64,000 nucleotides of DNA, taken from positions 160,001-224,000 of IMG/VR virus record IMGVR_UViG_3300038443_002533, one strand, 5' to 3'. The translations under genes were made by a program, and so were the position numbers. This DNA comes from a virus (lineage: Duplodnaviria > Caudoviricetes). Under the pieces are notes generated by a model. The model ran no database searches, was not told the DNA's origin, and saw only the letters and a program-made list of their open reading frames with translations. How positions within the stretch are numbered: the first letter of the stretch is position 1; each line of letters begins with the position of its first letter. Shown piece after piece: positions 337 through 3,780 of the stretch.

Positions 337-1030
337 CCGAGCAATCGGTTACCATGGCTGTGACTTACTGAGGGCGCACCTGAAAAGGGCTCGGTAAGTT
401 ACAGCAAGTTGTGCCCTTACATCGGACATATGGGTCGATGGGGTTTGTGCCGATAAGACTGGGTGCCAACGCCCGGACCTAAAGCACACAGGCGCATCCC
501 ACTCGGGAAGGCGAGTGGTCGGGCGTAATACGAGAACCTCGGGTTGCTACCCGGGGCTGTTTGCCAACAGGCGGCTTAAGTCGCTTTCGGCCCTGCTGGG
601 AGATCTCAGCGCACGTAAGCACTCGTGTTAATGCCCGCGGTGCGGCCGGCCAATTCTCGGCCTGCACCTCGATGTTCGTGACACGTCTGTTCGATTGCCG
701 GTTAACTCCGGCCAGACGAGTGTTTGAGTGGTTGGCGGGTGGGTATCCCGTCTGGGCAGCTGATATTCGCCTACCGCTTCCGAACTGCCTGAGCATAGCC
801 TTTAGGCACTTGACGCGCAAATCGCTCAGGTGGGCCTAAGGGATGTGCTAAGAGCATGTCAAACTTCTTTTCTAGAGAGATTGGTTGTGCCTAGCCACGA
901 TGGGAATCGTTGCGGCGCGATGGGAATCGCCACAAGGTGCAACAAGTAGTACACATTGGTGTATAGCCTGAAGTTGCCTTTACCAAGACCGCCGTCTGCA
1001 AACGGCGTAGAGGCAATTTTGGCATGTACT
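337..1030 (+). ncRNA. putative large structured non-coding RNA (~700 nt)
   Basis: No credible ORF; dense hairpins including a 16-bp stem (357-372/390-405) and GNRA-capped hairpins (337-348, 897-910, 917-930); strand inferred from flanking genes. Confidence 0.55.
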
Positions 1031-3315: not shown

Positions 3316-3780
3316 ATGGCTGGATTTGTGAAATTGATGTCGAATGAAAACCTGCCGGACGCAAGTCCGTTCAAAGGCTATCAGCTGATCAGCTTACCGG
3401 ACGCTGGCAAGGTCGAATTCAAACGTAATGAGCGAGGTCTCGATACGTGTGTGATCTACACCCCGGAGCATGATCCAGAAGAATACCTGATGTACGGCAA
3501 TGCGTATATCCTGAGCGACTCGGGTAAAACCATTGCTTCCCATGGCACCAACGTGCCCTGCGCATTGGAACCGGGTCAAGAGATCAATGACGCTAAGGTG
3601 GCGGTTAGCGCACTGCTTACGCTGGAACCTGACGATCTGAAAGCGGCCCTTTGCCATCTGGTTGCAACTAAGCCGGAAACCATCCGTGTCATGGGTGGCG
3701 TCATAGCCAATTTGGCGCGGGCCGGAAACGAAGCTGCTATTTACTCAATTCGTCCCGCGGTCGAACACATCAGCACGTAA
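3316..3780 (+). CDS. hypothetical phage protein inside the RNA cluster
   Basis: 154-aa ORF with AGGAG RBS. Confidence 0.8.
   Translation: MAGFVKLMSNENLPDASPFKGYQLISLPDAGKVEFKRNERGLDTCVIYTPEHDPEEYLMYGNAYILSDSGKTIASHGTNVPCALEPGQEINDAKVAVSALLTLEPDDLKAALCHLVATKPETIRVMGGVIANLARAGNEAAIYSIRPAVEHIST

Follow-up and report, generated by a model that had tools for sequence, protein, structure and literature searches.

A conserved, modular RNA of about 690 nucleotides at the head of a tRNA island in chimallin-encoding jumbo phages

We describe a conserved, modular RNA of approximately 690 nt that is encoded on the + strand of a phage genome, whose fold is backed by covariation, which belongs to no catalogued family, and which holds a fixed place at the head of a tRNA island. 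The window, meaning the entire 64,000-nucleotide stretch that was analyzed, comprises bases 160,001-224,000 of a virus record that is 272,470 bp long and bears direct terminal repeats. The genome carries a chimallin homologue scoring above the Pfam cut-off and is therefore that of a nucleus-forming jumbo phage, with Ralstonia and Burkholderia jumbo phages as its closest cultured relatives by DNA or protein search. The best explanation of the data, which we consider reasonably probable, is that the locus is a structured noncoding RNA gene of a new jumbo-phage family, whose ~690-nt product would be processed and would act in trans as an architectural RNA similar to GOLLD and ROOL.

The RNA occupies a gap between two small genes, arranged as follows in window coordinates.

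42-329 (stop codon 327-329): orfA, 95 aa, phrog_6978, of unknown function
330-1046: gene-free gap, from the orfA stop to the orfB ATG
1047-1550, + strand (ATG at 1047): orfB, 167 aa, a HAD-type phosphatase with a DxDxT motif, preceded by an RBS-like AAAGAG from 1036

The motif of orfB reads DLDKT in translation, and the proteins flanking the RNA matched no Pfam family. Downstream of orfB, arrays of tRNAs and tRNA-like RNAs were present in all 10 homologue loci scanned. Homologues of orfA (61-69% identical) occur in 12 viral contigs that have no other gene in common with this phage, and among RNA-bearing relatives orfA lies either between a promoter-like block and the RNA or 5′ of that block. 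Because orfA is scattered among otherwise unrelated contigs and shifts in position, it is a mobile small gene.

The original prediction held that the region contains no credible gene, and this was borne out. The gap has just two mechanical open reading frames (92 aa on the + strand at 561-839 and 113 aa on the - strand at 479-820), both of which are broken by stops and frame-shifting gaps in homologues, leaving no conserved reading frame. The folding energy also departs from that of shuffled controls, with the + strand at -314.4 kcal/mol (z -8.7 relative to dinucleotide shuffles) and the reverse complement at -257 (z -3.4). As a native control, every other 717-nt window in the first ~80% of the genome was folded on both strands (302 folds) and energy was regressed on GC. 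By this measure the + strand lies 3.66 residual standard deviations below expectation, beyond the most extreme of the 302 native folds (-2.96), whereas the - strand lies at +0.05. The excess of structure is thus real and specific to the + strand. The strand is likewise fixed as + by the many G-U pairs, which would become A-C mismatches on the opposite strand.

Use of the protein encoded at 3316-3780, between tRNA genes, as a query led to a 226-kb IMG/VR contig to which the whole region aligns (nhmmer, E = 4.5e-57), at the same place between orfA and orfB homologues. A search with orfB returned proteins 51-85% identical on metagenomic contigs of up to 273 kb, and a gene-free gap of 420-1200 nt is situated directly 5′ of the orfB homologue in 11 of the 12 contigs fetched; in the twelfth (P0016 on L051) the gap is just 181 nt and shows no sign of the RNA. 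The covariance model R1, built on the central 170 nt, matches the + strand of the gap in nine distinct sequences with scores of 32-200 bits. R1 gives low scores or none in loci L046, L050, L039 and L057, which nevertheless carry the outer motifs of the family, for a total of 13 distinct variants from metagenomic contigs of related ~270-kb chimallin-encoding phages. Identity among homologues is 47-77% in a MAFFT alignment of 10 sequences, and over alignable positions the RNA (67-82% nucleotide identity) is as conserved as the neighboring coding gene (66-81%). The RNA lies upstream of orfB in the same orientation in 13 of 13 variants, is adjacent to it save in L039, and in most members ends 15-25 nt 5′ of the orfB start codon.

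Beyond these sequences, a blastn search of 50,697 phage records with the region and two divergent homologues gave no match, and motif scans of viral and metagenome contigs revealed no homologue other than those already found. An index of other sequence stretches contained no look-alike of the RNA beyond the phage's own genome. R1 and R2, the latter a model of the 3′ module described below, found nothing in Burkholderia phages FLC9 and BcepSauron or in the more distant 322-kb relative behind L023, and gave no credible match in Ralstonia phages RP12, FLC1-1B and FLC4-3B; a weak R2 match in RP12 (E 0.78) is a terminator-like hairpin that follows a gene on the opposite strand. Several other groups of candidates were rejected. 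Relatives identified through orfA (L002-L013) are non-syntenic and lack the RNA, loci identified through an RNA ligase (L014-L017) are non-syntenic, and a search of viral contigs for the twin-hairpin pattern gave only unrelated coding repeats. A motif scan of genome contigs gave three matches in MAGs (two Treponema and one deltaproteobacterium), which fail R1 and were taken as chance.

The 5′ module has the following elements, with window coordinates taken from a constrained fold.

336-349, + strand: H1, 5-bp hairpin (stem 336-340/345-349) with a GCAA (GNRA) tetraloop
357-405, + strand: H2, long hairpin of 15-16 bp (357-371/391-405) with an inner hairpin; its 3′ end abuts an AAGUU motif
406-414, + strand: A1, conserved AAGUUGUGC, of which 408-414 supplies the 5′ strand of P_a (long-range)
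408-414/793-799, + strand: P_a, 7 pairs, with its partner GCAUAGC nearly 400 nt downstream
415-443, + strand: H4, conserved hairpin UCCUUACA...GGGGA
446-488, + strand: H5, hairpin whose internal loop (UAAG/AGUAG-type) is conserved and which also has an apical hairpin
489-493/787-791, + strand: P_x, long-range helix with 5′ strand CAGGC
499-668, + strand: core (R1), comprising two hairpins, the second with a conserved 9-nt loop, and between them a four-way junction with a closing helix of 14-15 bp
674-678/781-785, + strand: P_y, helix around a variable branched domain (680-779)
787-799, + strand: conserved GCCUG-N-GCAUAGC, which supplies the 3′ strand of P_x (787-791) and that of P_a (793-799) and includes A3 (791-799)
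800-841, + strand: P_b, hairpin (800-807/834-841 plus an inner helix) stacked on P_a without a gap
842-872, + strand: A4 and P_c, a purine-pyrimidine tail (GAUGUGC) with hairpin P_c (842-849/853-860), then a U-rich run

Covariation was assessed on 9-13 sequences, all of one phage clade, and by segment, because a whole-length MAFFT alignment misplaced the variable parts. The helix that closes the module, P_a, has all seven pairs intact in each of the 12 sequences examined and shows double compensations in L039 and L057, while slid controls give 14-48%. In the core, 96.8% of cells are paired across 53 pairs and 36 of the 53 show double changes; slid partners pair at 37-42%, and the observed values were reached by none of 500 shuffles. 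The covariation scores of H4 (9 pairs, 94.3% paired, 7 of 9 changed on both sides) and of the eight outer pairs of P_b (95.8% paired, 4 of 8 with double changes) were likewise reached by 0 of 500 shuffles. Compensation is seen in P_x in L034 (UAGGC/GCCUA) and L047 (CAGGU/ACCUG), and in P_y in the same two loci (G-C to A-U), with P_y wholly rewritten in L049 (UGCGUG/CGCGCA). It had been proposed that homologues be sought with nhmmer and then tested for covariation, and covariation backs most of the fold.

Other parts of the module are more variable. The H1 stem is kept in L024, L035 and L049 with GCAA, GCGA or GAAA loops, and the other members have no H1. At the position of H2, each of the 13 homologues has its own long hairpin of differing sequence abutting the motif. 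H5 folds in every homologue taken singly, in a stretch where the alignment is too poor for column counts. The branched domain at 680-779 is missing or short in L024, L044, L041/L042 and L047.

The description of the region as dense in hairpins was correct for most of the stems named, since the GCAA hairpin, H2, 499-505/512-518 and the twin GGGA hairpins are present at the predicted places. However, a further predicted stem (788-794/824-830) exists in the window sequence and is not kept in relatives, where 51% of cells are paired, a value equal to shuffled and slid controls. Its bases belong to the conserved P_x and P_a. Two tertiary contacts were considered and dropped: a core pseudoknot (GAGAA/UUCUC), inspected by eye and only partly consistent among homologues, and the UAUGG/CCUAAG halves of a tetraloop receptor, which are not conserved. 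The junction GAGAA at 533-537 is complementary to the conserved loop …AUUCUC at 651-658, and the two change jointly in L047 (AAGAA/UUCUU) and not in L044, a pattern that a core pseudoknot could produce. We also observed that the near-invariant CUCCUUA at 414-421 in H4, paired with GGGG(A), resembles the 3′ end of 16S rRNA (the anti-Shine-Dalgarno sequence, CCUCCUUA); this likeness may be coincidental.

The remainder of the RNA consists of a three-way junction and a second, smaller module.

884-943, + strand: P_d three-way junction (884-891/936-943), bearing the twin GGGA-tetraloop hairpins
898-912 and 917-930, + strand: twin GGGA hairpins (898-902/908-912 and 917-921/926-930)
944-1033, + strand: 3′ module (model R2), with P_a' 949-954/959-964, P_b' 966-983/1007-1023 and tail A4' at about 1024-1033

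The 3′ module has the motif AAGU-helix-tetraloop-helix-AGCC, followed by a stacked hairpin and a UUUGG-purine-pyrimidine tail. It contains 23 pairs, is 95.5% paired, and has double changes in 12 of 23 pairs, values that were reached by 0 of 500 shuffles. The RNA contains one motif twice, composed each time of a closing helix (P_a), a stacked hairpin (P_b) and a purine-pyrimidine tail. The 5′ copy surrounds an inserted domain of ~380 nt, whereas the 3′ copy has just a tetraloop inside. Both strands of P_d are compensated in L035, L044 and L047, judged by eye from the alignments. It had been noted previously that the twin hairpins differ by a compensatory closing pair. Both hairpins are indeed present, but that comparison is between paralogous hairpins within one sequence. 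Ten homologues retain the second hairpin, showing replacements of U-A by C-G pairs and a GNRA loop that reads either GGGA or GUGA, and such orthologous changes are the better evidence; the first GGGA hairpin is present in the closest relatives only.

The architecture is modular. The outer scaffold (H2, A1, H4, A3, P_b and A4) is the best-conserved portion, the R1 core is swapped for unrelated sequence in L046, L050 and L039, and the 3′ module is missing in L041/L042 and L057. Two loci have tRNA-like genes within or beside the RNA. Between the modules of L049 (L049:2698-2857) lies a tRNA-shaped gene with recognizable acceptor and T arms and a ~100-nt insert in the anticodon region, which was not called by ARAGORN and has no Rfam match at E <= 0.5. 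Directly 3′ of the RNA in L039 (L039:2662-2760) is a tRNA-like gene that scores 29.6 bits with the Rfam tRNA-Sec model, below threshold, and this gene together with a 66-aa open reading frame parts the RNA from orfB.

Searches for known RNA families were carried out with Rfam 15, which gave no match for the RNA region at the gathering score. Relaxing the threshold to E <= 10 for positions 250-1150 brought up nothing credible, and in 10 homologue loci the stretch holding the RNA was without a match at E <= 0.5. These searches included the models for GOLLD (RF01998) and ROOL (RF03087), neither of which matched in the window or in the 10 homologue loci at any of these thresholds. T-box and riboswitch models were also without a match in the window and the 10 loci. 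RNase P RNA and tmRNA had no Rfam match, and ARAGORN found no tmRNA. Group I and group II introns were rejected on the basis of no Rfam match, no conserved open reading frame and an intergenic position. The YrlA model (RF02553) has no match inside the RNA region, its sub-threshold matches being confined to the downstream arrays. The literature searched contained no description of the RNA. Since it matches none of GOLLD, ROOL, the introns, RNase P, T-box or YrlA, the RNA is classed here as a new family of the GOLLD/ROOL kind. This agrees with the earlier impressions that it is a large structured RNA of the ROOL/GOLLD sort, here a conserved, covariation-backed RNA of ~690 nt on the + strand beside a tRNA island, and that no family could be assigned to it.

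GOLLD is found at phage tRNA islands and consists of two domains with a variable linker between them, in which tRNAs are sometimes located; one part of it is conserved and another is more variable (10.1101/2024.12.08.627333). The RNA described here resembles GOLLD in being an ornate, multi-junction phage RNA of more than 600 nt at tRNA islands, and in having two domains, with the tRNA-like gene between the modules of L049 paralleling the tRNA of the GOLLD linker. However, its helices and conserved motifs differ and give no covariance-model match. Moreover, its outer scaffold (P_a, P_b and H4) is conserved while the inner core is swapped, its basic motif is duplicated, and its carriers are chimallin-encoding jumbo phages rather than Lactobacillales or lake phages. 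ROOL is an RNA of ~500-600 nt from phages and prophages, often near tRNA genes, with complex junctions and no known protein partner (10.1101/2024.12.08.627333). The phage RNA shares with ROOL the vicinity of tRNA genes and the complex junctions, but the 5′ and 3′ regions of ROOL intertwine via pseudoknots, whereas this RNA is nested and modular with separable modules. Both GOLLD and ROOL have proved to be cages built of RNA alone. Phage T4 provides another precedent in its species 1 and 2 RNAs (rnaC/rnaD), stable noncoding RNAs of the phage tRNA operon with no assigned function. The T4 RNAs and the jumbo-phage RNA are alike in being noncoding and in lying within or heading a phage tRNA gene cluster, but the latter is several times larger and lies 5′ of a phosphatase gene, not between tRNAs.

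A promoter-like block (…TTGTAATATTGC…TTATTTA…TATGCTGTGCGAGA…) is conserved 190-700 nt 5′ of the RNA in 12 of 13 loci. Its spacing is unlike that of sigma-70 promoters, and its TATG-like element is reminiscent of the promoters of phiKZ-type phage RNA polymerases. The copy upstream of the RNA in the genome studied is as follows.

genome about 159,690-159,800 (L001:860-975), 5′ of window base 1: promoter-like block, …TTGTAATATTGC…TTATTTA…ATGCTGTGCGAGA

Given this shared block upstream and the tRNA arrays downstream, the RNA is the first noncoding element of the transcription unit of a tRNA island. Transcription would proceed rightward from the promoter-like block and would take in the RNA, the phosphatase gene and the island of tRNAs and tRNA-like RNAs as a single unit. 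In the predicted fold, P_a would close a branched domain of ~380 nt within which P_x, the four-way-junction core and P_y are nested; the GNRA-tetraloop hairpins would then precede the 3′ module, which would repeat the motif around a tetraloop. The RNA is probably processed from the operon transcript and probably acts in trans through its shape. Release from the polycistronic transcript might even occur separately for the two modules, as a tRNA-like gene sits between them in L049. GNRA tetraloops are typical of tertiary docking. Once released, the RNA could serve as an architectural RNA resembling GOLLD and ROOL, its three-dimensional shape allowing it to bind proteins or to assemble with itself, in a role that may be tied to tRNA and RNA-repair processes of the island. 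A search for one possible partner found no Ro60/TROVE gene in the phage genome, while control genomes did match.

Alternatively, the RNA might be a cis-acting leader that switches orfB and the tRNA island in the manner of a giant riboswitch or T-box, although we consider this rather unlikely. In such a switch, A3 (791-799) would pair either with A1, forming P_a and closing the domain, or with the A4 tail (P_alt), and A4 might otherwise form P_c, a weak terminator-like element. The same competition would be repeated in the 3′ module beside the orfB ribosome-binding site, and folding or liganding of the large domain would gate read-through, processing or translation. Consistent with this scheme, the RNA is invariably 5′ of orfB in the same orientation, in most members at the short distance noted above, the 3′ module abuts the orfB ribosome-binding site in most members, and P_c with its U-rich tail was flagged as terminator-like. 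When the A1 strand is omitted, RNAalifold pairs A3 with the A4 tail instead. P_alt (A4 with 791-797) reaches 93% pairing, and four of its pairs have changed on both sides, among them an A-U/U-A exchange that runs along clade lines and two pairs compensated in L057, but pairing is already 71% at a slide of -2. The corresponding P_alt' of the 3′ module is 86% paired with three double changes, compared with 74% when slid by 2. Since the A1, A3 and A4 strands alternate purine and pyrimidine, a 2-nt slide by itself gives this 71-74% pairing, and the switch is thus a lead rather than a result; P_a, in contrast, pairs perfectly.

The family resembles riboswitch and T-box leaders in that the 3′ strand of a closing helix has a conserved alternative partner downstream and in that it precedes the genes of an operon. 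Nevertheless, it is 3-5 times larger than such leaders, has no T-box motif and matches no T-box or riboswitch model, its supposed sensor core is not conserved across the family, and its alternative pairing may stem from the alternating purine-pyrimidine sequence. Outside the window's own clade P_c has no U run, the U-rich part of 842-872 being limited to the closest relatives L034 and L035. Also weighing against a leader, the 3′ module is absent from L041/L042, the RNA of L039 is separated from orfB, and the modules of L049 are split. The separable modules and the non-adjacency of the RNA to orfB at some loci therefore favor a trans-acting RNA over a dedicated leader. It should be noted that an inner core that is unrelated in L046, L050 and L039 is odd for a single conserved three-dimensional machine.

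A more ambitious version of switching, which we regard as speculative and improbable, is that the RNA is a giant conformational sensor for the tRNA island, whose tandem modules toggle between P_a and P_alt. If this were true, the folding of the ~380-nt domain, or its occupancy by a tRNA-like RNA or a protein, would gate expression of the phosphatase and the tRNA array by processing, read-through or translation. A nucleus-forming phage would then be using the logic of a T-box on a scaffold that is unrelated and far larger.

It is very improbable that the RNA is a ribozyme, whether one that processes the island's unusual tRNA-like transcripts in the manner of RNase P or one that cuts the polycistronic transcript by self-cleavage. 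Large ribozymes are of comparable size and typically have multi-way junctions and GNRA loops, features that are found here in an RNA that heads an array of tRNA-like RNAs. However, models for RNase P, group I and group II introns, hammerhead, twister, pistol, hatchet and HDV gave no match in the region even at E <= 10, nor did they match any of the 10 homologue loci at E <= 0.5, and no invariant block resembling a catalytic core is common to the 13 members, three of which have the core swapped. A non-functional origin, as a decayed mobile element, an intron remnant or GC-rich foldable spacer DNA, has next to no probability: the orfA-based relatives L002-L013 have no such gap and an HNH endonuclease gene has inserted beside the RNA in L041, but this reading is already contradicted by covariation, with compensatory changes in nearly every helix and clean slid controls, and is opposed by conservation equal to that of the adjacent coding gene, a fixed genomic position in 13 phages and strand-specific stability.

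To our knowledge, structured RNAs longer than ~500 nt are seldom met apart from rRNA, introns and a small number of 'ornate' classes, and every newly found class of large RNA that we are aware of has shown new RNA architecture. The support for the present family, with strong covariation, modular design, GNRA loops and a swappable core in a conserved scaffold, justifies structural work. Its carriers are Chimalliviridae-like phages, in which RNA traffic across the protein nucleus is poorly understood. The island that the RNA heads encodes tRNA look-alikes without anticodons together with RNA-repair enzymes, so the RNA may belong to an unexplored phage RNA system.

Two observations concern the surroundings of the RNA. 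The downstream tRNA-like arrays of 5 of 10 loci contain sub-threshold matches to YrlA (Y RNA-like), such as L035:4672-4782, L050:3937-4046 and L047:4079-4152. In addition, the RNAs of L041 and L042 are 94% identical, and an HNH/NUMOD4 endonuclease gene in the former (L041:1886-2464) replaces the promoter-like block and leader present in the latter (L042:2273-2476). This gene looks like a free-standing homing endonuclease that inserted beside the RNA gene.
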